Of a stretch of 46,941 bases of DNA, positions 1,525 through 20,364 are shown piece after piece. Below the pieces are notes generated by a model. The model was given only the letters and a program-made list of their open reading frames with translations. It did not search any database and was not told the origin of the DNA. Source of the DNA: a bacterium (GTDB lineage Bacteria; Desulfobacterota; Binatia; HRBIN30; CADEER01); assembly GCA_031401035.1 (NCBI GenBank), contig JANNRA010000116.1, positions 1 through 46,941 on the forward strand, written 5' to 3'. The first letter of the stretch is position 1, and each line of letters starts with the position of its first letter. A program made the position numbers and the translations under genes.

Positions 1525-2450
1525 TCGTGGCGGATGTGTCGCCCGGCGACCCGCCGCCACTGCACGCAGGAGTTGAATCGCTGTTGGTGGTGGCCAACCC
1601 CAGCCGCATGCCGGCCGGCTTCGACGCGGCGGGGGCGCTGCGGCGGACGCGCGGTGACGGCGGCGATGTCGAACGCATCGTCGGATGGCTGCGCGCGGGG
1701 AGCCAGCATCTGGTCGTCGCGGCGGGCGGCGACGGCACCGCGCGCGCCGTCGCCGCGGCCCTGATGACGCTGCCGGCCGGCGAACGGCCGGCGCTCGGGC
1801 TGCTGCCGCTCGGCACCGCCAACAACCTGGCCCGCTCGCTCGGCCTGCGCCGCGTGCGCCGCGACGCGACGGCGTTGACGGTGGCGCTGGCGGCGCTGCG
1901 CCGCGGCAGGCTGCGGCCGCTCGACCTCGGCTGCGTCAACGGCGCCTGGTTCGTCGGATCCTGCGCCGCCGGCATGGACGGCGCCATCCTCGCCACGCGC
2001 AACCGCTGGCGCGCCCGCTGGAGGCTGCGCGGCGGCTATCCGCTGTATCTGGCCAGTTGCGCGGCGAACCTGCTGCGGCATCGCCCGGCGACACTCGCCC
2101 TGTCGCTCGACGGCGGCGCCGCCGCGTTTGTGCCGGCGCACAATCTCCTCGTCCTCAACACCGCACTGTACGCCGGCGAGTTCCGCTTCGACACCCGCGA
2201 CCGCAGCGCCGACGCACGGCTCGACCTGCTCGTCGCGGCGTCGGCACCCGCCTACGTCCGCGACTTCGTCAGCGCCTGGGGACGCCAGCTCGGCGTGCCA
2301 GTCGGCGCCGCCGACCTGCGCCCGTTCAGCACGGCGCGGATCGAAGCGGAGGCGCCACTGGCGCTGCAGGTGGACGGCGAGGAATTCGCCCCGACGCGCC
2401 TGCTCGAGGTACGCCTCGAGCCAGCCGCCCTGAGCGTGGTCGTCCCCTGA
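1521..2450 (+). CDS. Diacylglycerol-kinase catalytic-domain lipid kinase (YegS/BmrU family)
   Basis: DAGK_cat signature VVAAGGDGTARAV and LGTANNLARSLGL; GTG start overlaps the upstream stop codon. Confidence 0.7.
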   Translation: MIVADVSPGDPPPLHAGVESLLVVANPSRMPAGFDAAGALRRTRGDGGDVERIVGWLRAGSQHLVVAAGGDGTARAVAAALMTLPAGERPALGLLPLGTANNLARSLGLRRVRRDATALTVALAALRRGRLRPLDLGCVNGAWFVGSCAAGMDGAILATRNRWRARWRLRGGYPLYLASCAANLLRHRPATLALSLDGGAAAFVPAHNLLVLNTALYAGEFRFDTRDRSADARLDLLVAASAPAYVRDFVSAWGRQLGVPVGAADLRPFSTARIEAEAPLALQVDGEEFAPTRLLEVRLEPAALSVVVP

Positions 2451-3852: not shown

Positions 3853-4928
3853 TGCGCGCCGTCGTGGTCACCGGCTTCGGTATTGTCTCGCCGCTCGGGC
3901 ACTCGCTGCAAGAGCTTGCGCGGCGGGTGGCGGCGGGAGAGCAGGCGGCGACGACGGCGGACGGCAGCGTCATCGCGTCGATCCCGCTCGATGTCGTTCC
4001 GGCGACGGCGCGGACGCGCATCGGCCGGCTCGATCGCCTCTGCCGCCTGGCGCTGGCAGCGTCCTACCTGGCGCTGGACGACGCCGCCGTGACCCTGCCG
4101 CTGGCGGTGCCGGAGCGCGTCGGGCTCGCCTTCGGCAGCGGACTCGGCTGCCTGCTCAGCAACGCCGAGTTCTACGCCAAGGTCGTCGCCCAGGGCGCTG
4201 CCGCGGCCAGTCCGCGCGCCTTCGCCTACACCGTCTCCAGCGCCGCCGCCGGGGAGGTGTCGATCGCGCTCGGCCTGCACGGCCCCAACACCACTCTGCA
4301 TATGGGCCTCGCCGCCGGCGTCGCGGCGCTCGGCTACGCCATGGACCTGGTCGGCAGCGGCCGCGCCGATATGGTCCTGGCCGGCGGCGTCGATGCGCTC
4401 GACGCGCCGCTCGCCGCGGCGCTGCGCGACATGGAGCTGTTCAAGACGCCGGCGCAGGCGCGGCCCTTCGTCGACGCGGTGGCCGGCCTGTGGCCGTCCG
4501 AGGGCGCCGCCATCGCCGTCGTCGAGAGCGCCGCCCACGCCGCGGCGCGCGGCGCCCGCGTGCGCGCCCGCCTGCTGGCACACGCGGCCGGCTTCGAACC
4601 GACGTTGAGCGGACGCGTGCCGCTGGCCGACGGCGTCGCCGCGACGCTGCGCCGTACCCTCGCCGGGCAGCCGATCCCGGCGCTGGTGCTGGCCAGCGCG
4701 CACGGCACGCCGCTCGACGCAATCGAACGCGCCGCGCTGCAGGAAGTAGGGCTCGGCGCCGTACCGATCGTCGCACCCAAGGCCTGCCTCGGCGACGCCT
4801 TCGCCGCCAGCGGCGCCTTTGCGGCGGCGCTCGCCAGCGCCGGTGGCCCGACGCCGGCGCTGATCAGCGCCCTGTGCCCATCCGGCAGCATCGCCGCGCT
4901 GCTCGTCGAGGCCTGCGCTCCCGCCTGA
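3852..4928 (+). CDS. KS-beta / chain-length-factor-like ketosynthase homolog lacking the catalytic Cys and both His
   Basis: TGATG stop/start overlap with the upstream KS. KS fold signature (VVVTGFGIVSPLG) is present, but the active-site position reads HMGLAAG and the His motifs are replaced (KACLGD). Confidence 0.75.
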   Translation: MRAVVVTGFGIVSPLGHSLQELARRVAAGEQAATTADGSVIASIPLDVVPATARTRIGRLDRLCRLALAASYLALDDAAVTLPLAVPERVGLAFGSGLGCLLSNAEFYAKVVAQGAAAASPRAFAYTVSSAAAGEVSIALGLHGPNTTLHMGLAAGVAALGYAMDLVGSGRADMVLAGGVDALDAPLAAALRDMELFKTPAQARPFVDAVAGLWPSEGAAIAVVESAAHAAARGARVRARLLAHAAGFEPTLSGRVPLADGVAATLRRTLAGQPIPALVLASAHGTPLDAIERAALQEVGLGAVPIVAPKACLGDAFAASGAFAAALASAGGPTPALISALCPSGSIAALLVEACAPA

Positions 4929-5079
4929 TGGGCGGCGCCCTCCAGGAAAATCACACCCCGGGTGGATTCGAGGTCGGGAACTGGATGCGCCCGCGGCGGC
5001 GCCGCGTTCGGGGTGCAACGGCGGACTGCATCGGGACTCGGGTTCCAGCCCGCGTCGGCGGCGTGCTAGCTCCCGGCCC

Positions 5080-5847
5080 ATGTCCGCACTCCCCGATCCG
5101 CTGCGCCTCGACGGCAAGCGGGCGCTGATCACTGGGGCCTCGCGCGGCATCGGGCGCGCGACGGCCGAGGCGCTCGCCGCCGCCGGCGCGGCGGTGGCGA
5201 TCAACTACGCACGCTCCGCCGACGAGGCGGAGGCGGTGGCCGCCGCCCTGCGCGCCGCCGGCGCCGAGGTCGAAGTGGTGCAGGCCGACGTCGCCGACCC
5301 CGCACAGGTCGAGGCGATGTTCGCATCTCTGAAGGCGCGCTGGGACGGCGTCGACATCGTCGTCAACAATGCCGCCATCTCGCGCGACGGCTTCGTCATG
5401 CTCACCAGCCCGGCGACGTGGGACGAGGTCGTGGCGGTCAACCTGCGCGGCCCCTTCCTGTGTGCGCGCGCGGCGCTGCGGCCAATGATCCGGCGGCGCT
5501 GGGGGCGCATCGTCAACATCATCTCGCCGGCCGCCCTGCTCGGTCAGGACGGCGCCGCCGCCTACGCCGCCACCAAGGGCGGCCTGCTCAGTTTCACCCG
5601 CTCGCTGGCGCGGGAGGTCGGCCGCTACGGCATCACCGTCAATGCCGTCTGCCCCGGCCTGGTCGAGACGCGCCTCATCGCCGGCATGCCCGCCGCCGTG
5701 CGCGAGCGCCACCTGCAGGCCATCCCCCTCGGCCGCTTTGGCGCACCGGACGAGATCGCCCACGCCGTCCGCTTCCTCGCCTCCCCCGCCGCCTCGTACG
5801 TCAGCGGCGCCCTGCTCGCCGTCGACGGCGGCCTGACCATGACGTGA
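5080..5847 (+). CDS. fabG: 3-oxoacyl-ACP reductase (SDR family, FabG-like)
   Basis: TGASRGIGRA Rossmann motif, NNAAI, and the YAATKGG catalytic Tyr/Lys. Confidence 0.85.
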   Translation: MSALPDPLRLDGKRALITGASRGIGRATAEALAAAGAAVAINYARSADEAEAVAAALRAAGAEVEVVQADVADPAQVEAMFASLKARWDGVDIVVNNAAISRDGFVMLTSPATWDEVVAVNLRGPFLCARAALRPMIRRRWGRIVNIISPAALLGQDGAAAYAATKGGLLSFTRSLAREVGRYGITVNAVCPGLVETRLIAGMPAAVRERHLQAIPLGRFGAPDEIAHAVRFLASPAASYVSGALLAVDGGLTMT

Positions 5848-5857
5848 AGAAGACACC

Positions 5858-5920
5858 TCACACGGAGACACGGAGGAACGGAGGTATCCGTACCCTCTCC
5901 GTGTCTCCGTCCTCCGTGTG
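5858..5920 (+). promoter_or_regulatory. Long GC-rich stem-loop between fabG and the downstream KS (candidate intra-operon terminator/attenuator or mRNA processing/stability element)
   Basis: acggagacacggag (5862-5875) pairs with ctccgtgtctccgt (5897-5910), with further nested complementarity (acgga/tccgt); no U-tract. Confidence 0.45.
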
Positions 5921-5938
5921 GAATAGTCGTTCGCTTCC

Positions 5939-7150
5939 ATGACCCGCATCGCCATCACCGGCCTCGGCAGCATCAACGCGCTTGGCGTCGGCGTCGCGGC
6001 GTTCGATGCCGGATTGCGCGCCGGGCGCTGCGGCATCGGGCCGCTGACGCGCTTCGCCGCTGACGGTTACCGTGTCGCCTGCGCGGCGGAAGCGCCGCCG
6101 CCGCCGCGCCTACCGGGAGTATCAGCGCGGGCGGCGCGGCGCTGGTCGTTGACGACGCGCCTGGCGCTGGCGGCGGCGGACGAGGCGTGGCGCGCTGCCG
6201 GTCTGGCGGACGGCGCCGCCTGCGGCGTCGTGCTCGGCACCACCACCGGCGGCATGGCCGGCGGCGAGGAGAGCTATCGACTGGAAGCGATCGGGGCGGA
6301 GGAACGCACCGCGTTGGCGAGCTGGCTCGAAACGCCGGTGGCGGTGCCGACCGACACCGTCGCGACGCTGATCGGCAGTCGTGGGCCGCGCCTGACGGTG
6401 TCGACGGCATGCTCCGCGGGCGCCAACGCCCTCGGTATCGGCGCCGATTGGATTCGCGCCGGGCGCGCCGCGGTCGTGCTGTGCGGCGGCGCCGAATCGC
6501 TGTGCCGCATGACGTATTCCGGCTTCAACAGCCTGCAGGCCCTCGACCGAGTGCCCTGCCGGCCGTTCGACCGCCAGCGCGCCGGACTGTCGCTCGGCGA
6601 GGGTGCGGCGCTGTTCGTGTTGGAGGACTGGAGCGCCGCGACGGCGCGCGGGGCGCGCATCCTCGGCGAGTTGCTCGGGTACGGCGTCAGTGCCGACGCC
6701 TATCACCTCACCCAGCCGCGCCCGGACGGCGCCGGCGCCGTGCTCGCCATGCGACGCGCCCTCGCGGATGCCGGCGTCGCGGCGGCGGCGATCGACTACG
6801 TCAACGCGCACGGCACCGGCACGCCGCTCAACGACGTCGCCGAGACGCGCGCGATCAAGGCCGTGCTCGGCGCCCGGGCGACGGCGGTGCCGGTGTCGTC
6901 GACCAAGTCGCAGGTCGGCCACTGTCTCGCCGCCGCCGGCGCCATCGAGGCGCTGGCGGCGCTGCTGGCGGCGCGCGGCGGCTTCGTGCCGGCGACCGTG
7001 ACGCTGCGCGACGCGGACCCGGAGTGCGACCTCGACTACGTGCCCGGACACAGTCGCGCCGCCGCGCTGCGCACGGTTCTGTCGAACTCGTACGGCTTCG
7101 GCGGCAACAACACGAGCCTCGTCCTGCGGGCGCCGGAGGCCGGCGCGTGA
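5939..7150 (+). CDS. Beta-ketoacyl synthase (KS, FabF-like) with intact triad
   Basis: Motifs STACSAGANALG, NAHGTGTPLND and KSQVGHCLAAAG. Confidence 0.85.
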   Translation: MTRIAITGLGSINALGVGVAAFDAGLRAGRCGIGPLTRFAADGYRVACAAEAPPPPRLPGVSARAARRWSLTTRLALAAADEAWRAAGLADGAACGVVLGTTTGGMAGGEESYRLEAIGAEERTALASWLETPVAVPTDTVATLIGSRGPRLTVSTACSAGANALGIGADWIRAGRAAVVLCGGAESLCRMTYSGFNSLQALDRVPCRPFDRQRAGLSLGEGAALFVLEDWSAATARGARILGELLGYGVSADAYHLTQPRPDGAGAVLAMRRALADAGVAAAAIDYVNAHGTGTPLNDVAETRAIKAVLGARATAVPVSSTKSQVGHCLAAAGAIEALAALLAARGGFVPATVTLRDADPECDLDYVPGHSRAAALRTVLSNSYGFGGNNTSLVLRAPEAGA

Positions 7151-8346
7151 GCGACCCGGTAGCGGTCACCGGCGTCGGCATCGTCAGTCCGATCGGCATC
7201 GGCGCGCGCCAGTTCTGGCAGGCCCTCGCCGCCGGCCGCTCCGGCATCGCGCCGGCGGCGGGGCTGGCCGGGCCCGACGGGCTGCCGACGCTCGCCGCCG
7301 CGGTGGGCGACTTCGCGGCGCGCGAGTTCATCACCTCGAGCCACTATCGGCGCATGGATCCGTTGTCGCGCATGGTGGTCGCCGCCTGCCGCATGGCCCT
7401 GGACGACGCCGACGCCGGCCCCGACCTCGACGTCGCGCGCACCGGCATCGTCGTCGGCTCCGCCATCGGCAATGCCTCGGAGTCGGCACAACACCTCGAC
7501 CGGCTGTTTCTGAAGGGGCCGGCGGCGGTGAGTCCGATGCTCTTTCCCAACCTGGTGCTCAACGCGCCGGCGAGCTACGCGGCGATGGAGTTCGGCTTCA
7601 CCGGCGTCAACTTCACCGTCGCGCAGGCGGAGATCTCCGGCGAGACGGCGATCGCGCTCGGCGTCGATGCGGTGCGCAGCGGCCGCGCCGACCGGGTGCT
7701 CGCCGGCGGCGGCGACGACCTGGCGCCGATCCTGCTCCGCACCCTGCATCGCAGCCGCGCCCTCGCCGGCCAGCGCGGCGGGCGCGAGTGGGCAAGCCCC
7801 TACGACGTGGCGCGCAGCGGTCTGGTGGCCGGTGCGGGCGCGGCGATGCTGGCCCTCGAACCGCTCGCCCGCGCCCGCCGCCGCGGCGCCCCGGTGTACG
7901 CCTGCATCGTCGGCAGCACCGCCTGGGCGGTGCCGGCGCCGCCGTACGGCTGGCCGTCGCGCGCCCCGGCGTCGCTGGCGCCGCTCGCGGCGCTGTGCGG
8001 TGCCGCGCCGATCGACCTCGTCTGCGGCGGCGCCAACTCGACCACGACGCTCGACGCCTGCGAGTTGGCGCTGTTCGACGCGCTCGCGCCGGTGCGCGGC
8101 GCGACCCTGACGTCGATCAAGGGCGCCATCGGCGAGTTCGGAGCCGCCGGGGCGCTGACCGTCGCCGCCGCCTGCCTGGCATTGCGCGAACAAGTCGTGC
8201 CGCCGCTCTGCGCGCTGGAGAGCGCGGCGCCGACCGGGCTGCGCCTGGCGGCACGACAGGCGCAGCCGGCGTGTCTGCGCCGCGCCCTCGTGCACGGCCT
8301 CGCCCGCGGTGGCGCGGCGGCGGCGCTGCTGCTGGAAGTGGCCTGA
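7147..8346 (+). CDS. KS-beta / chain-length-factor-like protein with Gln in place of the catalytic Cys
   Basis: GTGA stop/start overlap with the upstream KS; VAQAEISG at the active-site position and KGAIGEFGAAG replacing the His motif; the upstream 960 nt of track ORF 6187..8346 is out-of-frame Arg-rich junk. Confidence 0.75.
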   Translation: MSDPVAVTGVGIVSPIGIGARQFWQALAAGRSGIAPAAGLAGPDGLPTLAAAVGDFAAREFITSSHYRRMDPLSRMVVAACRMALDDADAGPDLDVARTGIVVGSAIGNASESAQHLDRLFLKGPAAVSPMLFPNLVLNAPASYAAMEFGFTGVNFTVAQAEISGETAIALGVDAVRSGRADRVLAGGGDDLAPILLRTLHRSRALAGQRGGREWASPYDVARSGLVAGAGAAMLALEPLARARRRGAPVYACIVGSTAWAVPAPPYGWPSRAPASLAPLAALCGAAPIDLVCGGANSTTTLDACELALFDALAPVRGATLTSIKGAIGEFGAAGALTVAAACLALREQVVPPLCALESAAPTGLRLAARQAQPACLRRALVHGLARGGAAAALLLEVA

Positions 8347-8403
8347 ATCGCCCCCGATTCCCGCTTGCGCCGCCGATTGGCCAGGGGTGGTGGTCCGATG
8401 CAA

Positions 8404-8428
8404 GAGGCGCGGACGGGGCCGCGCCCTC
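8404..8428. terminator. Hairpin between convergent genes (candidate bidirectional terminator)
   Basis: gcgcgg acgggg ccgcgc stem-loop in the 93-bp gap between the KS-beta stop (8346) and the minus-strand radical SAM stop (8440). Confidence 0.35.
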
Positions 8429-8439
8429 CAGCTCGGAGT

Positions 8440-9597
8440 TTAGGCTGGCGGCGGGAGGTAGTTCTCGATCGCCTCGCCCGGCCGCAGGTGGTCCGCCAGC
8501 ACCGCCTCGAAGGGGCGCTGATCGAGGACCTCGAACTGGCTGGCGTCGAGGGGGAAACGCGCGCCGTCCGCGGTATACGGCGCCACCGCCGCCGAACCGG
8601 CCGACAACACGGTCACCAGCGGCACCAACAACCGCTGCATCGCAGCCGGCTCACGCGTCGTCAGGACGATCTTCGCCTCGGGCAGGCCGCACGACAGGAT
8701 CGACACCAGGCGGATGAACGTCGCGTCGTCGGCGCCGCGCTGGTTGGCACGGCCGGCGATCTGACGCAGGCGCGGCACCGACAGATAGACCTCCATGCCA
8801 GCGTCGAGCAGGTGGCGGGCATGCAGAGCGAGGGCGACGAGCTCGAAGCCGAGGTCGGGGTTGAGGCCGACCAGGATGCCGGGGTTGGCGACGCGCAGGC
8901 CGGCGGCGCGGGCGCGATCGAAGTTGCCCAGGCGGCGGTCGTAGTCGGCGCGCGGATTGCCGGCCGCGGTGCCCATGAAGCGCGCGTAGTGGGGCCGCGA
9001 GTAGGTTTCCTGGAAAGTGCACATGGTCAGCTTGGCGGCGACGGCGCCGTCGGGTCGGCGAGCGAGGGCGTCGAGCAGCAGCGGATACTCGTCGGCGTCG
9101 AGCGAGCCGACGTTGATCAGTACGTGCCGGAAGGCGCGCGCCTGCGTCGCGTGCAACGCTTGGTTCACCTGCGCCAGCACCGGCGCGCGCCGCTCGGCGC
9201 GGTACTCGCCGGTGAGCAGCGCGACGCCGTACATGCCGCGCCGGCGCAGGACATCGAGCTGGTCCGCGATGGTCGCGGCGTCGACCGTCGTGCGGCGCAG
9301 CGCCGCGTTGTCATGGCGCATACCGCACATCCGGCACTCGGCGTCGCAGGTATTGGTCAGGTACAGCGGCGAGAAGGTCTCCAGGCGTGTCGGTCGGTGG
9401 GTGCGCGCGGCACGGGCCAGGGCGTACAGCGCGTCGGCGTCGAGCGGCGCCGTCCACAAGATCGCCAGGTCGTCGACGGCGAGGGGCGCGCCGGCGCGGG
9501 CGCGGCAGACGACCTCGTGACGAACCGCCGTCGGCGCCGCGGCGGCGGCGCGCAGGCGGGCGCTGACGTCGCTCGCGGCGAGGCGGAAGTGCATCAT
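8440..9597 (-). CDS. Radical SAM enzyme of the ThiH/HydG/BioB-like subfamily
   Basis: YLTNTCDAECRMC (CxxxCxxC preceded by Y-x-T/S-N-x-C as in the ThiH/HydE/BioB group); 385 aa. Confidence 0.7.
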   Translation of the reverse strand: MMHFRLAASDVSARLRAAAAAPTAVRHEVVCRARAGAPLAVDDLAILWTAPLDADALYALARAARTHRPTRLETFSPLYLTNTCDAECRMCGMRHDNAALRRTTVDAATIADQLDVLRRRGMYGVALLTGEYRAERRAPVLAQVNQALHATQARAFRHVLINVGSLDADEYPLLLDALARRPDGAVAAKLTMCTFQETYSRPHYARFMGTAAGNPRADYDRRLGNFDRARAAGLRVANPGILVGLNPDLGFELVALALHARHLLDAGMEVYLSVPRLRQIAGRANQRGADDATFIRLVSILSCGLPEAKIVLTTREPAAMQRLLVPLVTVLSAGSAAVAPYTADGARFPLDASQFEVLDQRPFEAVLADHLRPGEAIENYLPPPA

Positions 9598-9726
9598 GTG
9601 GTGCCCTCGCTAACCTTCGCCAGGGAGTCGGTCAACGTGTCGCGCGGCCATTTCGGGCCGCCCCCTCGGTCGCGCCTGTTGGCGCGCTCGGCTAGGCTCC
9701 GCCGCGTGCCCGCGCCCAGTCACGCC

Positions 9727-10521
9727 ATGTCGGTCGATGTCGAGGACTGGTTTCACGACGGCGGCCTGGCGCCGGCCGCGCCGACAGCGCACCGGGTCGA
9801 ACGCAACACCGACGCGCTGCTGGAGCTGTTCGCCGCCGCCGGCGCGCGGGCGACGTTCTTCGTCCTCGGCGACGTCGCCGCCCGTCACCCGCAGCTGATC
9901 GGCCGCATCGCCGCCGGCGGGCACGAGATCGCCAGTCACGGCTACGCGCACCAGCACCTGACGCGCCAGCTGTGGCGCGAGTTCCGCGCCGACGTCGAAC
10001 GCGCCCGCCTGCTGCTCGAGGACCGCGTCGGCGCCGCGGTGCGCGGCTACCGGGCGCCCTATTTCGCCATCCAGGCCGGCGTGCGCTGGCCGATCGAGCA
10101 GATCGCCGCGGCCGGCTACGGCTACGACTCCAGCCTGCTGCCGATGGGCCGCCCGCCGGGACTCGAGCTGGTCTGCCCGCGCGCCCCGTACCGCCATCAC
10201 AATGGCCTCTGGGAGGTACCGGTGGCGGTGCTGCAACTGGGGCGCTTCTGGCATCTGCCGCTGGCGAGCGGCTGGGGCCTGCGTCTGATGCCGCCGCGCC
10301 TGCTGCGACGCGGGCTGGCGCGCTTCGAGCGCGACGTCGGGTCGGGCGTATTCTATCTGCACCCGTGGGAGCTCGATGCCGATTCGCCGTGCGGGCCGGG
10401 TCCCTGGCGCTGGGCGCTGCGCGTCGGCCGCGGCCGGCTGGCGGAGCGCCTCGCGGCGCTGCTGGGCGAGCGGACGTTCGTGCCGATCCGCGACGTGTTT
10501 CCGGAGACGCAGGGCGGATGA
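9727..10521 (+). CDS. Polysaccharide deacetylase, CE4/NodB fold, PEP-CTERM-locus-type subfamily
   Basis: N-terminal MSVDVEDWFH and GHEIASHGYAH motifs; the upstream part of track ORF 8365..10521 overlaps the opposite-strand radical SAM and is rejected. Confidence 0.75.
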   Translation: MSVDVEDWFHDGGLAPAAPTAHRVERNTDALLELFAAAGARATFFVLGDVAARHPQLIGRIAAGGHEIASHGYAHQHLTRQLWREFRADVERARLLLEDRVGAAVRGYRAPYFAIQAGVRWPIEQIAAAGYGYDSSLLPMGRPPGLELVCPRAPYRHHNGLWEVPVAVLQLGRFWHLPLASGWGLRLMPPRLLRRGLARFERDVGSGVFYLHPWELDADSPCGPGPWRWALRVGRGRLAERLAALLGERTFVPIRDVFPETQGG

Positions 10522-10540
10522 GAGGTGTTGTGTCGGGTGC

Positions 10541-10585
10541 GAATCCCCTCACCCTGACCCTCTCGCTGCTGGAGAGGCGACCTTG
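10541..10585. repeat. Palindromic intergenic repeat, family copy 2 (half element)
   Basis: atcccctcaccctgaccctctcgctgctggagaggcgaccttg; near-identical to 2473..2516. Confidence 0.7.
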
Positions 10586-10648
10586 GGCCGCAGCGCGCGG
10601 CTTGCGTGCGTTTCGGCTGCGGCGGGGTGTGGGGATCGGACGCGCTCC

Positions 10649-11647
10649 ATGAAGGCCGCACTCCCGCTGCTCGTCGGCGGCGCGCTGTGTGCGCTGCTGC
10701 TCTGGTGGTTCGGCGTCGACGGCGTCGTCGCGGCGCTGCGCCAGGCGCGCCCGCTCGGGCTGGCGTGGTACGCGATCCTCTCCGCCCTCGTCCTCCTCCT
10801 GCTCGCCGTCCGCTGGCGGCTCGTCGCGCGGGCCCTCGGCGGCGCACCGCCGCTGGCGCGGCTGGCCGCGGCGCGTCTCGCCGGCGACGCGGTCGGCGCG
10901 CTGCTGCCGCTGACGCGCCTGGGCGGCGACCCCCTGCGTGCCGTCCTGGTGCGCGGCGCGGCGCCGTCGCTGGCGGCGGCCGGCGCCGGCGTCGCCATCG
11001 ACCGCCTGCTCGAGCTGATCGGCAACATGGTCGCCGCCATCGCCTATGTCACCGTCTTCGCGCTGACCCGCGCCGACGCCGCCACCCCGGCGCCGCGGTC
11101 GCTGGGCATCGCCATGGCGGTGCTGCTCGTGGTGCTCGCCGTACAACTGCTCGCCCTGGCGCGCGGCCACCGACCGTTGGCGCCGCTGTATGGCGCCCGC
11201 GTTCGGCGCCTGGCGCCGCGCCTGACGCCGTGGTTCGACGGACTGCGGCGCGTCGAGGACCATCTGCAGACCTTCTTCCAAGCCCACCGGCGCGCCTTCG
11301 TCGCCGGTCTCGCCTGCGCCGTCGGTACCGAGCTGCTGATCATCGCCCAGTACCACGCCCTGCTCGCCGCCTTCGGCATCGCCCTCGACCTGCCGGTGCT
11401 GTTGCTGGTCCTGCTCGGCGGCGGCCTGGCGCGCGCCGTGCCGCTGCCGGCCGGGCTCGGTGCGCTCGAAGCGGCGCAGGTCCTCGTCGTCGGCGCCAGC
11501 ACCGGCCGCGCCGATCTCGGTTTCGTCGTCGGTGTGCTGGTGCGCCTGCACGAGACGCTGCTGTTGCTCATCGGACTGGCGGCGCTGGCGTGGTGCGGGG
11601 CGTCGCCGATGCGACAGGCGGCCGTGGCGCGCGAGGCCAGCCGGTGA
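10649..11647 (+). CDS. Flippase-like / lysylphosphatidylglycerol-synthase-TM-region-like integral membrane protein (UPF0104 family)
   Basis: 8-10 predicted TM helices and a GDxxRxxLxRG-like motif (LTRLGGDPLRAV); start taken at MKAALPLL from the track frame. Confidence 0.6.
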   Translation: MKAALPLLVGGALCALLLWWFGVDGVVAALRQARPLGLAWYAILSALVLLLLAVRWRLVARALGGAPPLARLAAARLAGDAVGALLPLTRLGGDPLRAVLVRGAAPSLAAAGAGVAIDRLLELIGNMVAAIAYVTVFALTRADAATPAPRSLGIAMAVLLVVLAVQLLALARGHRPLAPLYGARVRRLAPRLTPWFDGLRRVEDHLQTFFQAHRRAFVAGLACAVGTELLIIAQYHALLAAFGIALDLPVLLLVLLGGGLARAVPLPAGLGALEAAQVLVVGASTGRADLGFVVGVLVRLHETLLLLIGLAALAWCGASPMRQAAVAREASR

Positions 11648-12198
11648 CCTCGGTCCTGCTCAGCATCGTCTTCGCGCTCGGCTGGCTGCCGCTGTTCGCC
11701 TTCCGCGCCGAAACCCTGACCGCGGCGTTGCCGCACTACTCCGCCGCCGAGCGCCTCTCGGTCTATGTCGCGCCACTGACCGTCGCCCTGCACGTCACGC
11801 TCGCCTGCCTGCTGGTGACGCAGGAGACGCCGCTGCCGCCGCTGCGCACGACGGCGGCGCTGGCGCTGTTCGCCGCCGCCCTCGCTTTCTGGTTCCGCGC
11901 CCGGGCGCAGATCGGTCCGCTGCGCAAGCGGCCGCTGCCCGACGAGCCGCCGCCGGTGCTGCGCCGCGACGGCCCCTTCGGCCTGGTGCGCAACCCGCTG
12001 TACCTGGCCTACCTCGGCGCCGCCGCCGCGCCGGCGCTGGTCGCGGCGCGGCCGCTCCTGCTGTTCACCTGGCTCATCTGCCTCGCGGCCCTGAGCGTCC
12101 GCGCGGCTCAGGAAGAAGGCCGCCTGCACGCCCAGCTCGGCCCCACCTACGCCGCCTACTGCCGCGAGGTGAAGCGCCTCATCCCCTTCGTGTGGTAG
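11644..12198 (+). CDS. Membrane methyltransferase of the ICMT/PEMT (isoprenylcysteine carboxyl / phospholipid methyltransferase) family
   Basis: GLVRNPLYLAY and C-terminal EEGRLHAQLGPTYAAYCREVKRLIPFVW motifs; GTGA overlap with the upstream gene. Confidence 0.65.
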   Translation: MTSVLLSIVFALGWLPLFAFRAETLTAALPHYSAAERLSVYVAPLTVALHVTLACLLVTQETPLPPLRTTAALALFAAALAFWFRARAQIGPLRKRPLPDEPPPVLRRDGPFGLVRNPLYLAYLGAAAAPALVAARPLLLFTWLICLAALSVRAAQEEGRLHAQLGPTYAAYCREVKRLIPFVW

Positions 12199-12209
12199 AG
12201 GGGCGCGGC

Positions 12210-13685
12210 ATGACGAGCGCTGGGCGCACCATCGTATTCTGCGAGCCGCCCTACCTGTTCTGGGATCGCCGCCGTGATCGGCTGCGGCAGGGCGAAGAGA
12301 CCATCCCGGGTATGGGCGTGCTGATGCTCGCGGCGGTGGCACGGCGGCGCGGCTATCGCGTCCACCTGCTCGACGCCAAACCGCAGGGCACGGCGCTCGA
12401 CGAGGTCTGCGCGCGCATCATCGCCCTGCGGCCGGACTATCTCGGCTTGTCGGCGACGACCATCTCGGTCACCAACGCGGCGCGTATCGCGGCGCGCGTC
12501 AAGGCGGCGCTGCCGGGGGTGGTGACGATCGTCGGCGGCGCCCATGTCAGCGCCATCCCCGAACGCACGCTCGACGCCTTCCCGAGTCTCGACTACGCCG
12601 TCGCCGGCGAGGGCGAGGTGGCGCTGTTCGCGTTGCTCGAGCACCTCGAACGCGGCGCGCCGCTCGACGACGTCGCCGGCGCCGTCTGGCGCCGCGACGG
12701 TCGCGCGGTGGCCAACCCGCGCGCGCCGTATATCGACGACCTCGACGCGCTGCCGGTGCCGGCCTGGGACCTGCTGCCCGACTTCCCGCACCGCTTTCAA
12801 CCCTCGCTGTTCAGCTATCCGCGCACGCCGGTGGCGACCCTGATCACCTCGCGCGGCTGCCCGTTCACCTGCGTCTTCTGCGACCGCTCGACCTCCGGTC
12901 GCAAGGGGCGCCTGCACGGCGTCGAGACCGTCGTCAGCCTGTGCGCCGACCTGGTCGGGCGCGGCGCGCGGCACATCATGTTCCTCGACGACCTGTTCAC
13001 CGTCCGCCAACGGCGCGTCGTCGAACTGTGCGAGGCGTTGCTTGCCGCCGACCTGCGCTTTTCGTGGAGCTGCAACAGCCACCCCAACCTGCTCGATCTG
13101 CCGACGCTGCGCCTGATGCAGCGCGCCGGCTGCTGGCAGATCGCCTACGGCATCGAGTCCGGCTCGCAGCGCGTGCTCGACACGGTCAAACGCGAGGTGC
13201 GCATCCCGCGCATGCGCGAGACGCTGCGCCTGACCCGCGCCGCCGGCATCCGCACCAAGGGCTACCTCATGCTCGGCCACCCGACCGAAACGCGCGAGAG
13301 TCTGGCCGAGACGGAGGCCTTCCTGCGCGTCGCCGAGCTCGACCTGTGCCAGATCACCAAGTTCACGCCCTACCCCGGCACACCGGCGTACCCGACCATC
13401 GCTCAGCACGGCGCCTTCAGCGAGGACTGGGAACGCATGAACGCCATGCAGTTCGTCTTCGTGCCGCACGGTCTGACGGTGGGTGAGCTCGAGCGCGCCT
13501 TCGACCGCTGCTACCGCACTTTCTACAGCCGCACGGACGTCCTCTGGGGCATGGCGAAGCTGATGGTCGGCGAGCCGCGCTTCATCGGCCGCATGGCCAG
13601 CTCGGCGGCGGTGTACCTCGGGGCGAAGCTGGCCGAGCCGGCGGCGCGGGCGGAGGCCCTGACAGGCTCGCCGGGCCTGAGGTGA
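12210..13685 (+). CDS. B12-binding-domain radical SAM enzyme (class B)
   Basis: N-terminal B12-binding Rossmann region followed by TSRGCPFTCVFCD (CxxxCxxC); 491 aa. Confidence 0.8.
   Translation: MTSAGRTIVFCEPPYLFWDRRRDRLRQGEETIPGMGVLMLAAVARRRGYRVHLLDAKPQGTALDEVCARIIALRPDYLGLSATTISVTNAARIAARVKAALPGVVTIVGGAHVSAIPERTLDAFPSLDYAVAGEGEVALFALLEHLERGAPLDDVAGAVWRRDGRAVANPRAPYIDDLDALPVPAWDLLPDFPHRFQPSLFSYPRTPVATLITSRGCPFTCVFCDRSTSGRKGRLHGVETVVSLCADLVGRGARHIMFLDDLFTVRQRRVVELCEALLAADLRFSWSCNSHPNLLDLPTLRLMQRAGCWQIAYGIESGSQRVLDTVKREVRIPRMRETLRLTRAAGIRTKGYLMLGHPTETRESLAETEAFLRVAELDLCQITKFTPYPGTPAYPTIAQHGAFSEDWERMNAMQFVFVPHGLTVGELERAFDRCYRTFYSRTDVLWGMAKLMVGEPRFIGRMASSAAVYLGAKLAEPAARAEALTGSPGLR
13556..13630. 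repeat. Copy A of a ~75-bp dispersed repeat (3' end of the radical SAM gene), repeated at 14893..14967
   Basis: ctgatggtcggcgagccgcgcttcatcggccgcatggccagctcggcggcggtgtacctcg versus cgatggtcggcgagccgcgcttcgtcggccgcagggccagcgcggcggcggtgtacctcg. Confidence 0.7.
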
Positions 13686-14103
13686 CAGGCCGCGCCGCCG
13701 GCCCCCTCGCCGCTGGTACATCACTACCGTCCGTGGCGTGCCACGTCGTATCGCTGAGACGACACCGAACGGCACCTGCTCTGCATCGCCTGCACCAGGG
13801 CGCGCGACCACCTCTGGGTGGCGACCGTCACGCCCGCTTCCGAGTCCCTCGAGACATGCAGGCACGCGGGCAAGAGGGTGCCACAGGGCCGGCGGACTCA
13901 CGAGCGCTACCGGTTGAGGTGCTTCTCGTAGGGCAACTGCCAGCGCTTGTAGGCGACCTCCATCGAACACTTGTACGCGGCATCTGAGGCGCTTGGCCGA
14001 CGTCAACCTTCCTTGCGAACCGTGTTGCGCTCGCCGCTGAACCCTAGCCGCAGGCCGACCGTACCCGGTAGACAGTCGTCCGTCACTGCCGTATAGGTAT
14101 AGC

Positions 14104-14418
14104 GTGTTCAGGTTCGTCGAGACGGCGCTCTTCACTCGCCTCGTCGATGGGTACCTGTCTGACGATGACTACCTCAAGCTCCAAGTGGCGCTCGCAGAGA
14201 ATCCCGAGCGGGGATCGGTCATTCCCGGGTCCAGCGGGGTGCGGAAGCTGCGCTGGGCTGCGCCGGGTCGAGGCAAGCGCGGAGGATACCGCGTGATCTA
14301 CTACTTGCGGTCACATGCCGGAGCGATTTGGATGCTGACGATGTACCCGAAGAACGTCGCCAACAGCATCCCGGCGCATGTCCTGCGGAAGATACGAAGG
14401 GAGATCGACGATGCGTAA
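14104..14418 (+). CDS. Type II toxin, RelE/HigB-like family (toxin-first arrangement)
   Basis: KRGGYRVIYY...AIWMLTMYPKN motif typical of HigB/RelE-like toxins; sits in a local low-GC island. Confidence 0.7.
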   Translation: MFRFVETALFTRLVDGYLSDDDYLKLQVALAENPERGSVIPGSSGVRKLRWAAPGRGKRGGYRVIYYLRSHAGAIWMLTMYPKNVANSIPAHVLRKIRREIDDA

Positions 14419-14689
14419 GAGCGGGAGGCGAGATGTTGGCGCTGAGATCCTCGAAGGCCTTCGACAGCTGAAGCGCGGAGAAATCGGGCGGGTCACGACC
14501 TTGCCCAGGGTAGCCGAAACACGGGCACGGATGGGGCTGTCGCAGGCGGAGTTTGCTCGCCTACTCGGAGTCTCCGTTCGAACTCTACAGGAATGGGAGC
14601 AGGGTCGCCGCGCCCCCTCGGGACCAGCACGCACCCTCCTGATCATCGCCCACAAGAATCCCCAGGCGTTGCTTGAGGTGGCGGCCTAA
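14411..14689 (+). CDS. HTH (XRE-type) antitoxin, HigA-like
   Basis: ATG at 14411 overlaps the toxin stop by 8 nt (ATGCGTAA); LSQAEFARLLGVSVRTLQEWEQG helix-turn-helix. Confidence 0.65.
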   Translation: MRKSGRRDVGAEILEGLRQLKRGEIGRVTTLPRVAETRARMGLSQAEFARLLGVSVRTLQEWEQGRRAPSGPARTLLIIAHKNPQALLEVAA

Positions 14690-14892
14690 CCCGGCGGGCA
14701 CCCCGATCAGGAGTTCGTCGATTCGACCCTCGGCATCCTGCGGTGGGTTAAAGACGACGAGGCCTGGTCTGGGCGGTCTTGTTTCAGACGTGGGCGGGAT
14801 CGTCTTCTGATGACGACAGGACCGTCTTCTGGCGCGGGCATCCGTGCTCCGGCAGGTCGGTGTAACCGCCCCAGCCGTCGCTACGCACCGTG

Positions 14893-14967
14893 GAGCCGAT
14901 GGTCGGCGAGCCGCGCTTCGTCGGCCGCAGGGCCAGCGCGGCGGCGGTGTACCTCGCGGCGAAGGTG
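14893..14967. repeat. Copy B of the radical SAM 3'-end repeat (relic; no longer in a gene's reading frame)
   Basis: About 85% identical to 13556..13630. The repeat frame (phase of 14881, not covered by any track ORF) reads ...EPMVGEPRFVGRRASAAAVYLAAK..., mirroring the radical SAM C-terminus. Confidence 0.65.
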
Positions 14968-15118
14968 CGCTGGCGGGGCGGGGCGCGCGAGCCCGTGCCG
15001 GCGGCGCCGGCGCGGTGACCGGACGCGGACCGACGCCATTCTCCATGCCGGACCCAGCGTCTCAGACCCAGCGTCGCACGTTTGCGGCGTTACCGGCGCG
15101 GTGCTAGCGGCGTCGCCG

Positions 15119-17368: not shown

Positions 17369-18922
17369 TCATCGTGCCGATGGTCCGCTCGCCGTCCCGT
17401 CATAGTAGGCTTGGCACTTCGGCCAGAGGTGCGCCGCGACCGTGCGGCCCAGGCGCAGACCCGCGACGTTGTCGGCCTGGATGTGGTAGCCGCCCATGAC
17501 GCGCGAGATGCCGGCCATCTCCGCGACGACGCTGAAAGTCGGCAGTGGCAGCGTCACGCGGCAGCTCTCGGCAGCGGCGGCGGGCGCGCGCCCCCGCACC
17601 GCCTGTATCGCCTCGCAGGCATAGCCGCGTTCGGTTTCGGAGCCCGCCACGCGCACCTCTTCGTCGCCGAACTGGTCGCTGCCGGTGAAGCGTTCGAGGA
17701 TGGACGCGCAGGCGCCGCTGACGGCGCTGTGGCCGGAGACGTAGCCGGGGAACGGCGGCGTGATGAACGTGGCGGGAGAGTATGGCATCCACTGCGCGCC
17801 CGTGATCGGGCCGACGCCCTTGCCGGGTCCGAGCCAGCCGTCGATCGGCTGGTCGCGGTAGTAGTGGCGAACGAGGGTCCACGGGCGCGACGAATCGTAG
17901 TAGCGCTTGCTCTCCCAGGCGGCGATGAAGGCGTCCATGGCGGTGTTGGCGACGCAGAAGTACAGCTTCACGTCGCGATCCATGTCCAAGCGGTCGCGGC
18001 GCGAGACCGCCTGCGCGAAGCGCAGCCAGTGCCCCGATTGTCCGGTCGAGCGCGGGCCGTCGCGCATGAACTCGACGATCGCCCTCTGCTCGGGCGTGAG
18101 GGTGGCGTTGAAGCGGAGGCACTCGTCCACTTCCGCCTTGAGCTGCGCCGTGCCGACGCGCGGCGGTGGCGGCGGGCGGAACATGTCGGCGCGCTCCAGG
18201 CCGAAGGGTCGCACCCGGTACCAGAAGGGGGTGAGGAAGTTCGGCGTGACCGTACCGCCCGTGCCGTCGGCGAAGGCGATTGGCTGCCAGCGGTCCGCAT
18301 CGCGGATCTCCGAGACGGGGTTGAGCGGGGTGTAGAACGTGTAATCCGCGTACGCCTCGCCGTTGCCGCCGATCTCGTCGCCGAGTTGGTTGGCGCCGTC
18401 GTGGTGGCGGGCATCGAGCAGCGCCGCCGCGCAGCGGTTGCCGATGCCCTGCGGCGTGGCGGGGTCGGTGGAGCGGTCGTTGACGTCGTAGCCCCACGCG
18501 CCCATCAGCGCCGTGATGTGGGTCGTCGTGACCGGATGCTGGTCAACGATGGCGCGATACGCCGCGAAGGCCATCGCCTTGCGCTTGTTGTCCGGCGTGC
18601 GTTCGGCGGCGGGCCGGCGCAGGCTGCCGCCGAACACCGTGCCGACGGCCTTCTCGTCGTAGCAGGCCCAGGCGTCGAACATCGCGGTCGCGACGATCGC
18701 CATCTGCCGCGACAGAATGGTCGGCCGCGGGCTGATGCGGACGACGTCGTCGGCGGCGTCCTCGAGCATCGCATCGAGGATGCGGTAGGTCGCCGACGGC
18801 TCGGCGCCACCCCAGTCTCGCGTCTGGGCCACGGTCGGGGTCGCCAGGAGGACGCCGACGAGGAGCGCGAGCAGGGCGCGCGCGCGCGGTCTCGGCAGGC
18901 GCCGCGCGCGCCCCCGGCGCAT
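17369..18922 (-). CDS. Secreted PAP2-superfamily enzyme, vanadium-dependent haloperoxidase-like (alternatively an acid phosphatase)
   Basis: Tat/Sec-like signal MRRGRARRLPRPRARALLALLVGVLLATPTVAQT; PAP2 motifs K-RYYDSS-RP, PGYVSGH and SRVMGGYHIQAD with haloperoxidase-like long spacing. An alternative upstream start at 19009 (MATLAMT...) would overlap the upstream gene. Confidence 0.65.
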   Translation of the reverse strand: MRRGRARRLPRPRARALLALLVGVLLATPTVAQTRDWGGAEPSATYRILDAMLEDAADDVVRISPRPTILSRQMAIVATAMFDAWACYDEKAVGTVFGGSLRRPAAERTPDNKRKAMAFAAYRAIVDQHPVTTTHITALMGAWGYDVNDRSTDPATPQGIGNRCAAALLDARHHDGANQLGDEIGGNGEAYADYTFYTPLNPVSEIRDADRWQPIAFADGTGGTVTPNFLTPFWYRVRPFGLERADMFRPPPPPRVGTAQLKAEVDECLRFNATLTPEQRAIVEFMRDGPRSTGQSGHWLRFAQAVSRRDRLDMDRDVKLYFCVANTAMDAFIAAWESKRYYDSSRPWTLVRHYYRDQPIDGWLGPGKGVGPITGAQWMPYSPATFITPPFPGYVSGHSAVSGACASILERFTGSDQFGDEEVRVAGSETERGYACEAIQAVRGRAPAAAAESCRVTLPLPTFSVVAEMAGISRVMGGYHIQADNVAGLRLGRTVAAHLWPKCQAYYDGTASGPSAR

Positions 18923-18990
18923 CAGCGAGGCCGGATGCCCGCCCCGCACCGGGGTGTCATCGACGCGGCTGATCAGGCCGCCGCCGCCGG

Positions 18991-20364
18991 TCATCGCAAG
19001 AGTCGCCATAGCTGCCCCTTGATCTTGCGCGCGCGCAGCTTCTGCAACACCTGCACGTTGGTCTTGATGCCGAGGCCGGGCACGATCCAGTTCGAGTGGC
19101 TGCGCGCGTAAGCCTCGATGCGCTCGATGAGGTGATCCTCGAGGCCGGGCGAGATGTAGAACTTCGGATGCAGGAGGTTGTCGTCGGCATCGATCTGGCC
19201 GTCGGCCAGGGCGATATCGACCATGCCGGTGCCGGGCAGGATGCGGATGCCGGTCAGGGCGACGACCGCGGTGGGCTTGAGCTCGTCCATCAGCGCGATC
19301 GTCTCGGTCACCGTCTGCTCGGTTTCGCCGGGTCCGCCGAAGATGAGGCTGTGGCAGAAGCGCAGGCCGTGCGCGTGGCACAGCGCCGAGGTGCGACGCA
19401 GGTCGGCGACGTCGAACTGCTTGCGCAGCTGCGCGATCATCGCCGGGGCGCCCGAGTCGGTGCCGAACTCGATGGCGCGACAGCCGGCGCGCGCCATCAG
19501 CGCGCACAGCTCGGCGTCGACGAACTTCGGGTTCAGGTACGCCGACCATTCGACGTCGAGCTGACGCGCCGCGATCTCCTCGCAGATCTCCTTGGCGTGC
19601 CGCATCGGCTGGTTGAAGATGTTGTCGACGAAGAACCAGTGCCGCACGCCGTCGTTCTCGCGCGCCGCCTGCAGCTCGTCGACCACCGCCGTCGCGGTGC
19701 GCATGCGGACCTTGGCGCCCTCGATCAATGGGTAGCTGCAGAAGACGCACTCGAAGATGCAGCCGCGCTTGGTCTGGATGTTCAGCGCGCCGCCGCGCTC
19801 GTAGTAGCGTTGCAGGTCGAAGCTGCGCCGCAACGGCACGCCGGTGCTGTCGAGCTGCTTGATGCGCGTCACCGACGTCACGCACGTCCCGCCGTTGACC
19901 GCCTCGCAACGATACTCGTCGGTCGAGCGCAGCGGGTGCCCGGCGGCGAGCTGCGCCAGCACCCAGGGGAACGCCAGCTCGCCCTCGCCGACGACGCCGA
20001 CGTCGGCGTGCAGGTAGTCCATGATCGCGCCGGGCATGACCGTGAACCCGGCGCCGCCGAGGATCACCGGCGCATCGCTGTGCGCGCGCACCGCGTCGAC
20101 CAGCGCCTTGTAGTCGTCGATGTACGAGGTGTTCTGCGGGTAGGCGGACGAATCGAGATTGCGCAGCGAGATCCCCACCACGTCGGGGGCGAACGCCGCG
20201 AGCTGCGTCGAGAGGGTCGGCTCAAGCGCGCCGAGGAAGCAGAGGTCGAGCGTCTCGACCTCGTGCCCATGCTGTTCCGCCACCGCCGCCATGTACGCCG
20301 CGCCGATCGGAAACACCGGGTCCGGCAGCTGCTCGGTATTGGCGGAGATCAGCAGAACGCGCAT
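18991..20364 (-). CDS. B12-binding-domain radical SAM enzyme
   Basis: MRVLLISANTEQ B12-binding N-terminus and TKRGCIFECVFCSYP cluster; 457 aa. Confidence 0.8.
   Translation of the reverse strand: MRVLLISANTEQLPDPVFPIGAAYMAAVAEQHGHEVETLDLCFLGALEPTLSTQLAAFAPDVVGISLRNLDSSAYPQNTSYIDDYKALVDAVRAHSDAPVILGGAGFTVMPGAIMDYLHADVGVVGEGELAFPWVLAQLAAGHPLRSTDEYRCEAVNGGTCVTSVTRIKQLDSTGVPLRRSFDLQRYYERGGALNIQTKRGCIFECVFCSYPLIEGAKVRMRTATAVVDELQAARENDGVRHWFFVDNIFNQPMRHAKEICEEIAARQLDVEWSAYLNPKFVDAELCALMARAGCRAIEFGTDSGAPAMIAQLRKQFDVADLRRTSALCHAHGLRFCHSLIFGGPGETEQTVTETIALMDELKPTAVVALTGIRILPGTGMVDIALADGQIDADDNLLHPKFYISPGLEDHLIERIEAYARSHSNWIVPGLGIKTNVQVLQKLRARKIKGQLWRLLR

Follow-up and report, generated by a model that had tools for sequence, protein, structure and literature searches.

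A block of four genes, named here g1 to g4, was analysed in a 46,941-nucleotide contig of a Binatia bacterium (JANNRA010000116.1, called the window below). They encode, in this order, a carbohydrate esterase family 4 (CE4) deacetylase, a flippase-like membrane protein, a predicted membrane methyltransferase and a radical S-adenosylmethionine (SAM) enzyme carrying a B12-binding domain. The explanation favored here, with moderate confidence and by analogy with characterised pathways, is that the four proteins deacetylate, methylate, radically modify and flip the lipid-linked hexosamine of an aryl-polyene (APE) type lipid. It draws on the gene structure, the domain families and catalytic motifs of the proteins, the conserved gene order in related genomes, the homology of nearby genes to ApeJ, and the repeated linkage and fusion of g4-family members to sugar enzymes. 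On the basis of these neighborhoods and domain fusions, a sugar head group is a more likely target than an acyl chain. The original prediction made for this DNA had proposed the tailoring of a membrane glycolipid or polyketide-lipid outside any textbook pathway. This agrees with the surrounding ketosynthase (KS), chain-length factor (CLF), ketoreductase (KR) and acyltransferase genes, with the presence of a TIGR04072 marker gene and with that of a split counterpart of ApeJ.

Organization and conservation of the four-gene block

The window has a computed G+C content of about 72%, at which raw lists of open reading frames (ORFs) are of no use. The genes were resolved instead by a frame plot of the G+C content at third codon positions (GC3) for each phase, together with the translations. 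All four genes are on the plus strand and together fill positions 9727-13685 (Table 1), exactly the outer limits that had been predicted. The predicted GTGA overlap is real as well, being shared by the stop of g2 and the start of g3 (11644-11647), but the reported 12-nt spacer is in fact a gap of 11 nt between g3 and g4 (12199-12209). The genes g1 and g2 are separated by 127 nt in the window, whereas in relatives g2 overlaps the g1 stop by 4-10 nt. This gap exists because an inverted-repeat element of ~105 nt was inserted at the junction. A further copy is located near 2473-2575, in the intergenic region between the lipid kinase and KS genes, with 0 expected by chance. The copies carry terminal inverted repeats, ATCCCCTCACCCTG ... 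GGGTG(T/A)GGGGAT, and an internal hairpin, and the element looks like a mobile element of the MITE/REP type. It is missing from locus L001, in which g2 begins by an ATGA overlap, and its insertion destroys this ancestral start. The g2 start in the window is backed by the N-terminus found in locus L003. Apart from this element, a repeat scan within the operon gave only GC-rich chance matches, and promoter and terminator scans returned nothing beyond shuffle expectation, such scans being uninformative in DNA of 72% G+C.

The g1 protein matches PF01522 (72.7 bits, cutoff 23.1, residues 25-121) and PF11959 (70.2 bits, residues 135-258), and shows the CE4 plus DUF3473 two-domain architecture of TIGR03006. 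The CE4 motifs DxED (DVED), HExxSH, RAPY and LHPWE are kept across 10 g1 orthologs, and no hydrophobic or signal segment was found in the sequence. The deacetylase had been described as being of the PEP-CTERM-locus type, of which the architecture stands. The locus type does not, because the score against TIGR03006 (XrtA-system, PEP-CTERM locus) is 207.7 bits for a cutoff of 276.2, and because no exosortase, PEP-CTERM or exopolysaccharide domain was found among the scanned ORFs of the window or the called genes of L001-L006 and L090-L091. Membership of g1 in this equivalog family was rejected on these two grounds; the next match, NodB, reaches 58 bits. The g2 protein matches PF03706 (77.7 bits, cutoff 33.4) from residue 8 to 308, over model positions 2-301 of 302, as well as TIGR00374 (60.9 bits, above the 43.2 cutoff), and contains at least seven hydrophobic segments. 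Its identification as HpnL (TIGR03476) was rejected at 47.5 bits for a cutoff of 195.65.

The scores of g3 itself for the ICMT/PEMT fold are weak (PEMT 18.4 bits, cutoff 25; NF040696, ICMT, 39 bits, cutoff 160), and the assignment draws on its orthologs. Many of them carry precomputed PF04191/PF04140 matches, and a profile built from 15 of these proteins matches the Methanosarcina ICMT 4a2n over its whole length (residues 30-193 of 194, E=1e-5). The cofactor motif VRNPLY...QEExxLxxxxGxxYxxY is invariant in these 15 sequences.

To compare related neighborhoods, the window proteins were searched by tblastn, the called genes were clustered and g4 was placed in a neighbor-joining tree. The order g1-g2-g3-g4, preceded by a ThiH-like gene on the minus strand, is kept in at least 13 distinct related contigs at 49-94% identity. 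The arrangement is not due to chance, as the same order recurs in relatives and the four genes are found together in related genomes, contrary to the observation that would have refuted the original prediction. The type of neighborhood tracks the g4 clade. Clade A, which shows this order, comprises the window, L001, L003, L005, L007, L011, L014, L015, L017, L018, L053 and L055, plus L090 and the P0232 contig, two of these loci being rearranged by a 6-kb insertion (L007) or by the inversion of the cassette (L017). In clade B1 (at least 13 loci), a gene for an ApeJ-like glycosyltransferase of family 2 (GT2) lies directly downstream of g4, and a different CE4 protein, with PF01522 only, is encoded nearby in 6 loci. 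An LpxL-type acyltransferase gene occupies the position directly downstream of g4 in clade B2, and a different PF03706 protein is encoded divergently beside g4 in 6 loci of clade B3. In about two thirds of the Binatia species examined, g4 is present without the g1-g3 cassette. Conversely, a search starting from g3 homologs (56-63% identity) always recovered g1 and g2, with g4 following closely in L090 and on the P0232 contig. The g1-g3 set is a clade-restricted accessory cassette, while g4 belongs to the core of the cluster in Binatia. The notion of a four-gene operon is consequently valid for the conserved order found in relatives, but the cassette is separable and g4 occurs elsewhere without it. 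That CE4 and PF03706 genes of other kinds were recruited independently is a stronger argument for functional coupling than synteny; three non-orthologous CE4 deacetylases were found beside g4 homologs.

Two side observations concern this region. In locus L091 (2191-10555) of a metagenomic relative, the cassette is interrupted by an ISL3-family transposase gene and by several unrelated genes, and an intact g3 is found 7 kb further downstream; a putative ORF of 137 aa occupies the g3 position after g2, and a contig-end ORF the g4 position. In the window, the 1.4 kb past g4 (13686-15118) have low coding potential and contain a weakly RelE-like ORF at 14104-14418 on the plus strand (PF06296, 22.9 bits, cutoff 27). 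A toxin-antitoxin pair, DUF7662 plus PIN, is found at the matching spot in L003, and toxin-antitoxin modules seem to use this position as a landing site.

Relatives and domain fusions of the g4 protein

By its domain content, a B12-binding domain (PF02310, 78.9 bits) and a radical SAM core (PF04055, 74.4 bits), g4 is a class B radical SAM enzyme. Its CxxxCxxC motif is formed by C217, C221 and C224 (CPFTCVFC at residue 217). These matches, like those of g2 to PF03706 and TIGR00374, confirm the family calls made previously for both proteins. Three cobalamin radical SAM enzymes had also been counted in the window, and this number is recovered with g4 and two minus-strand genes further downstream (Table 1). 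The best PDB sequence match of g4 is AprD4, an enzyme in which a B12-binding domain is present and yet no cobalamin is used, so that cobalamin binding cannot be read from sequence.

Among the NCBIfam models, the best match of g4 is HpnJ (TIGR03471), aligned over its full length at 187.1 bits for a cutoff of 577.6, with ApyD and BchE close behind. The 71 nearest representatives all stay below the HpnJ and BchE thresholds, the best HpnJ E-value being 6.5e-77. The identification of g4 as HpnJ was rejected on these scores, and so was its membership in TIGR04072 (119.2 bits, cutoff 360). The label of C-methylase type given to g4 in the original prediction is not assertable for an unnamed family that is about equidistant from HpnJ and BchE. 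A tblastn search of plasmids aimed at HpnJ brought up nothing but BchE and radical SAM proteins without a name.

More than 1100 close homologs of g4 were detected in metagenomes, the top 120 all at 71% identity or more. The relatives include JGI/ENA contigs at 91% identity and metagenome-assembled genomes (MAGs) at 70-83%, mostly labelled Binatia. Among species-representative genomes, some 55 orthologs reach at least 57% identity, for the most part in MAGs named Candidatus Binatia or 'delta proteobacterium'. In an exhaustive search of representatives, the Binatia clade amounts to one representative, the next one being at 43% identity, and all 150 representatives among the matches listed score at least 283 bits. 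The searches of this analysis linked no member of the group to a named or characterised family. As judged from these comparisons, g4 belongs to a large unnamed family of B12 radical SAM enzymes.

The genes found next to members of this family point to sugars. In L054, a relative at 40% identity is ATGA-coupled to a GT2 gene, which is followed by Wzx and two more GT2 genes. Distant relatives are associated with GT-C and GT2 genes (L059) or with CE4 and GNAT genes (L062), and those carried by Solidesulfovibrio and by Azospirillum plasmids lie in glycan gene contexts. The association extends to gene fusions. In L063 (9914-12193), the radical SAM protein is fused to a GT2 domain, and the long representatives of the family, which include P0363, P0289, P0346, P0255 and P0368, are fused to a class I methyltransferase (four cases), a GT4 glycosyltransferase, a DegT aminotransferase, a Lip_A_acyltrans domain, a YdjC deacetylase (P0363) or a GT2 enzyme. 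Since fusions are seen with a deacetylase, a methyltransferase, a GT2 enzyme and an LpxL-type acyltransferase, every partner activity encoded around g4 in the window occurs fused to it somewhere in the family. These natural fusions may be taken as Rosetta-stone evidence for a sugar-directed function.

A counter-example is the locus L087 on plasmid pAZKH of Azoarcus sp. KH32C (7914-12399), which contains a g4 relative (35% identity) together with genes for an ICMT-family methyltransferase, a KS, an acyl carrier protein (ACP) and a PAP2 phosphatase, and no glycosyltransferase gene. It is the best plasmid-borne relative of g4, on a betaproteobacterial megaplasmid with a cultured host, and possibly a minimal relative of the g3/g4 pair.

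Proposed remodelling of the head group and alternative explanations

The lipid of the APE pathway, APEL, is an APE-acyl-GalNAc-phosphate-diacylglycerol, GalNAc being N-acetylgalactosamine (bioRxiv 10.1101/2020.12.19.423268). ApeJ is proposed to be bifunctional, adding GalNAc to a phosphatidyl intermediate and then acylating it with the aryl polyene, and a delta-apeJ mutant piles up the pre-GalNAc intermediate (bioRxiv 10.1101/2020.12.19.423268). The cluster of the window was likened to the ape genes by BLASTP against the ape proteins of E. coli CFT073, with E-values of 1e-62 to 2e-7. The KS, CLF, KR, ApeD-like acyltransferase and ApeJ-like GT2/acyltransferase genes that mark an APE-type cluster are all present. 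Among them, a divergent pair, an LpxL-type acyltransferase gene on the minus strand and a GT2 gene on the plus strand, is a split version of the bifunctional ApeJ of E. coli CFT073. Given this split ApeJ, the product of the cluster is very probably an N-acetylhexosamine (HexNAc) phospholipid.

The proposed remodelling starts from such a lipid; the substrates, the order of the steps and the chemistry of g3 and g4 are inferred. A lipid phosphate would come from the lipid kinase and the PlsC-type acyltransferase; the GT2 protein would place HexNAc on it, and the LpxL-type acyltransferase would acylate the sugar. The g1 protein, a metal-dependent CE4 enzyme predicted to be cytoplasmic, would then strip the N-acetyl group at the cytoplasmic face and leave a free amine on the lipid-linked sugar. 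ArnD, NodB and HpnK remove an N-acyl group in their respective pathways. The g3 protein would methylate the head group, most likely at the new amine, in a manner comparable to the conversion of phosphatidylethanolamine to phosphatidylcholine or to the NodS reaction, a hydroxyl or a carboxyl being possible as well. The radical step of g4 on the sugar would be a C-methylation or a rearrangement. Finally, g2 would act as a flippase of the MprF type and move the cationic or zwitterionic lipid to the outer leaflet; in MprF, the PF03706-family region flips the cationic lysyl-phosphatidylglycerol (Lys-PG). A bolder and rather unlikely version of this proposal would have the g4 family as a whole radically modify lipid-linked amino sugars, by C-methylation or carbocycle formation, and together with the cassette convert an APE-type GalNAc-phospholipid into a cationic, methylated or cyclitol-type outer-membrane head group.

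Several observations weigh against the remodelling of an amino sugar. The linkage between g1-g3 and g4 is found largely within one g4 clade, and the syntenic loci are therefore not independent. In a close relative, L008, the ThiH-like gene is directly beside g4 with no cassette between them, and in L019 and L020 g4 is found without any recognised cluster gene within 10 kb. On the scores given above, the likeness of g4 to HpnJ is generic. The sequence of g3 does not reveal its substrate class, and the gene set of pAZKH suits an acyl-chain or lipid-phosphate target equally well. Lastly, no ACP, dehydratase or MMPL/LolA/DUF3261 export genes were found in the window, which cuts the cluster at its 5' end, so that the ACP and dehydratase genes may lie upstream.

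The alternative that survives best, although unlikely, takes an acyl or aryl-polyene chain, or a lipid phosphate, as the target instead of the sugar. The g4 protein would in that case C-methylate or cyclise a hydrocarbon, g3 would methyl-esterify a carboxylate or O-methylate a phenol, and g1 would be an esterase or amidase acting on a non-sugar substrate. ICMT-type enzymes are classically carboxylate methylators, the block directly follows two KS/CLF pairs and a KR gene, and the Azoarcus relative just described has KS, ACP and PAP2 genes as neighbors of its ICMT-family gene. The cluster also contains a member of TIGR04072, whose proteins are believed to act on lipid chains (PMC13459092). However, g4-family genes adjoin or are fused with GT2, GT4, YdjC, DegT, Wzx and GT-C genes in several phyla, and in Binatia g4 adjoins one or the other half of the ApeJ equivalent. 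The three non-orthologous CE4 deacetylases beside g4 homologs and the full motif set of carbohydrate esterase family 4 kept in g1 argue in the same direction, in favor of a sugar.

A literal transfer of the HpnI/K/J/L logic of hopanoid biosynthesis is distinctly doubtful. It would have g4 turn the hexosamine into a carbocyclic, cyclitol-type head group by ring contraction, with g2 in the role of HpnL; such a contraction has been proposed for HpnJ and for calditol synthase. The set formed by a GT2 enzyme, a deacetylase, a B12 radical SAM enzyme and a PF03706 protein mirrors HpnI/K/J/L (PMC13459092), HpnJ and HpnL are respectively the top NCBIfam match of g4 and the second match of g2, and the YdjC domain of the fusion P0363 belongs to the HpnK family. 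Both scores are nevertheless far under their cutoffs, all 71 nearest representatives fall short of the HpnJ threshold, and BchE is matched as well as HpnJ is. No hopanoid gene (hpn or shc) was seen among the window genes, and the several relatives fused to methyltransferase domains make methylation at least as good a fit as ring contraction.

It is improbable that the block constitutes an exopolysaccharide or envelope glycan module, with a deacetylase of the PEP-CTERM/XrtA type and a flippase, standing beside a lipid cluster by accident. TIGR03006 is the best family match of g1 and some distant relatives of g4 belong to Wzx-type polysaccharide operons, but g1 stays under the cutoff of this family and no exosortase, PEP-CTERM, Wzx/Wzy or polymerising glycosyltransferase was found in the window. 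Moreover, the ThiH-like gene and g4 flank the cassette wherever the flanks are visible, even after rearrangement (L007, L017, P0232 contig), and KS/KR genes are located upstream too in most of these loci, though not on the P0232 contig. As for a participation of g2 in an MprF-like aminoacyl-phospholipid resistance system, it is hardly credible: PF03706 does correspond to the transmembrane/flippase region of MprF, but g2 consists of this domain only and has no PDB sequence match to MprF, and no Lys-PG synthase (tRNA-dependent aminoacyl-phosphatidylglycerol synthase) domain was found in g2 or the neighboring genes, so that the full-length MprF against which the original prediction had cautioned is not encoded here and this identification was rejected.

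The surrounding cluster and its comparison with known systems

The gene content assembled in Table 1 suggests that the window holds a variant of the aryl-polyene or 'ladderane-type' lipid clusters, which resemble type II fatty acid synthase (FAS-II), in uncultured Binatia (Candidatus Binatota).

Table 1. Genes and other features of the window discussed in the text
Feature	Positions	Strand	Details
PaaK/FlxY-like aryl-acid AMP ligase (cut by window start) and YegS/DAGK-type lipid kinase	1-2450	+	
Two KS/CLF-like pairs and FabG-type ketoreductase, chain-building part	2614-8346	+	KS 33-35% to ApeO/ApeR, KR 34% to ApeQ
ThiH/NosL-like radical SAM, non-B12	8440-9597	-	TIGR04158 239 bits (cutoff 400), ThiH 148 bits, CxxxCxxC at residue 84
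g1, CE4 deacetylase with C-terminal DUF3473 domain, predicted cytoplasmic	9727-10521	+	264 aa, ATG start
Inverted-repeat element, MITE/REP-like	10543-10647		~105 nt, terminal inverted repeats, at g1/g2 junction
g2, stand-alone LPG_synthase_TM / flippase-like polytopic membrane protein	10649-11647	+	332 aa, ATG start
g3, ICMT/PEMT-fold integral-membrane SAM-dependent methyltransferase (predicted)	11644-12198	+	184 aa, GTG start
g4, B12-binding-domain radical SAM enzyme	12210-13685	+	491 aa, ATG start
DUF6851 + VCPO_2nd + PAP2 protein, vanadium-haloperoxidase-like	17369-18994	-	
B12 radical SAM, TIGR04072 'lipid biosynthesis (ladderane-type cluster)' family	18991-20364	-	396.6 bits, above 360 cutoff
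Third B12-binding radical SAM, no named family	20441-21802	-	PF04055 73.4 bits, PF02310 30.8 bits; no NCBIfam above cutoff
PlsC-type acyltransferase (ApeD-like)	21829-22644	+	PF01553 109 bits; 27% to ApeD, E=2e-7
LpxL/PatA-type acyltransferase	30956-31924	-	PF03279 86 bits; PIM acyltransferase model 83 bits; 29% to ApeJ residues 360-549, E=6e-14
Small GT2 glycosyltransferase	32012-32695	+	37% to ApeJ residues 9-223, E=1e-35; AglJ 95.6 bits, PpgS (polyprenyl-P-GalNAc synthase) 80.5 bits

The ThiH-like gene is divergent from g1 over an intergenic region of 129 nt and adjoins it in every type A locus with a visible flank. This ThiH/NosL-family gene, of the aromatic amino-acid lyase type, and the aryl-acid ligase may supply an unusual aromatic starter unit; sister loci carry a tyrosine/aromatic ammonia-lyase and a FAD halogenase. 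In several sister clusters, a gene of the FAD-dependent Trp-halogenase type is found in place of the DUF6851/VCPO_2nd/PAP2 gene, an exchange suggestive of two alternative routes of halogenation. The DUF6851/VCPO_2nd/PAP2 gene was called as two ORFs of 281 and 168 aa in L001. The third B12-binding radical SAM gene keeps its place beside the PlsC-type acyltransferase gene in relatives. The latter is parted from the ApeJ-like acyltransferase/GT2 pair by an insertion of ~8 kb (22717-30755) encoding a 691-aa SPFH/Band-7 protein, a 1087-aa BTAD-AAA-TPR regulator, a Calx-beta protein and one unknown ORF, whereas in the 91%-identical L001 these genes adjoin. FG-GAP/ASPIC proteins are also encoded downstream of g4. 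BamE-like small lipoproteins and a CsgG-like lipoprotein recur in Binatia clusters (L005, L011, L024, L040 and others: C1, C19, C34, C35, C44), and may replace the LolA/DUF3261/MMPL export set of the canonical APE clusters.

The sequence of activities proposed for g1-g4 has precedents. In the ArnC-ArnD-ArnE/F pathway of polymyxin resistance, which produces 4-amino-4-deoxy-arabinose (Ara4N), and in the NodC-NodB-NodS-NodA pathway of the Nod factor, a GT2 enzyme makes a lipid-linked or oligomeric N-acyl amino sugar and a cytoplasmic CE4 enzyme de-N-acylates it. Methylation or re-acylation of the amine and flipping of the lipid follow. Both pathways differ in lipid carrier, sugar and flippase family from what is expected in the window, and neither has a radical SAM step. 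In the hopanoid module, HpnI (GT2), HpnK (YdjC deacetylase), HpnJ (B12 radical SAM) and HpnL (PF03706) act on a lipid-linked N-acetylglucosamine (PMC13459092). The same four kinds of activity are thus present, and among named families g4 and g2 have their best or second-best match in HpnJ and HpnL. In contrast, the deacetylase of the window is a CE4 enzyme and not a YdjC protein, the scores of g4 and g2 are far under the cutoffs, hopanoid genes are absent from the window genes, and an ICMT-fold methyltransferase is added.

The 'ladderane-type' clusters offer a comparison at the level of the whole cluster. TIGR04072 marks clusters combining FAS-II and radical SAM genes, first noted in Kuenenia and Desulfotalea (PMC2649909; PMC13459092), and the region kuste3335-3352 of Kuenenia stuttgartiensis encodes a 'polysaccharide deacetylase-like' protein (Kuste3351), a phenylacetyl-CoA-ligase-like protein and a glycosyltransferase (PMC2649909). 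The clusters of K. stuttgartiensis and Desulfotalea psychrophila share with the window a TIGR04072 member, extra FabF paralogues, a phenylacetyl-CoA-ligase-like gene and a glycosyltransferase gene. The organism studied here is however a member of the Binatia, and its cluster gives no evidence for ladderanes.

Few bacterial biosynthetic gene clusters are as widespread as those of the aryl-polyene type and, to our knowledge, the head-group chemistry of APE-type lipids is known from one organism only. The Binatota are an uncultured phylum, abundant in soils and sediments. A search of the literature on radical SAM enzymes and lipids of Binatia, aryl polyenes of Binatota, DUF3473, and glycolipids made by cobalamin radical SAM enzymes found no description of the present system. 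According to the data above, the Binatota carry a radical-SAM-rich cluster of the APE type with its own deacetylase/methyltransferase/flippase cassette, from which a new amino-sugar phospholipid can be predicted. The large family of B12 radical SAM enzymes to which g4 belongs, repeatedly tied to glycosyltransferases, sugar deacetylases, aminotransferases and LpxL-type acyltransferases, provides targets for enzymology and for biomarker lipidomics.

The closest counterpart of the window remains the APE cluster itself (apeA-R, E. coli CFT073 and Xenorhabdus doucetiae), with which it shares the type II KS/CLF/KR set, the ApeD-like PlsC protein, the GT2 and acyltransferase halves of ApeJ and the aryl-acid ligase. 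Unlike this reference, the window contains no MMPL, LolA or DUF3261 export genes, while its relatives have the BamE-like lipoproteins mentioned above, and two genes in divergent orientation take the place of apeJ. Beyond the APE set, the window encodes three B12 radical SAM enzymes, one further radical SAM enzyme that is ThiH-like, a lipid kinase and the cassette formed by the CE4, flippase-like and ICMT proteins. APEL retains its N-acetyl group, whereas the cluster of the window encodes a deacetylase. The type of cluster is therefore known, and the novelty would reside in a set of genes for amino-sugar tailoring, apparently added to an APE or 'ladderane-type' lipid cluster in an uncultured phylum.

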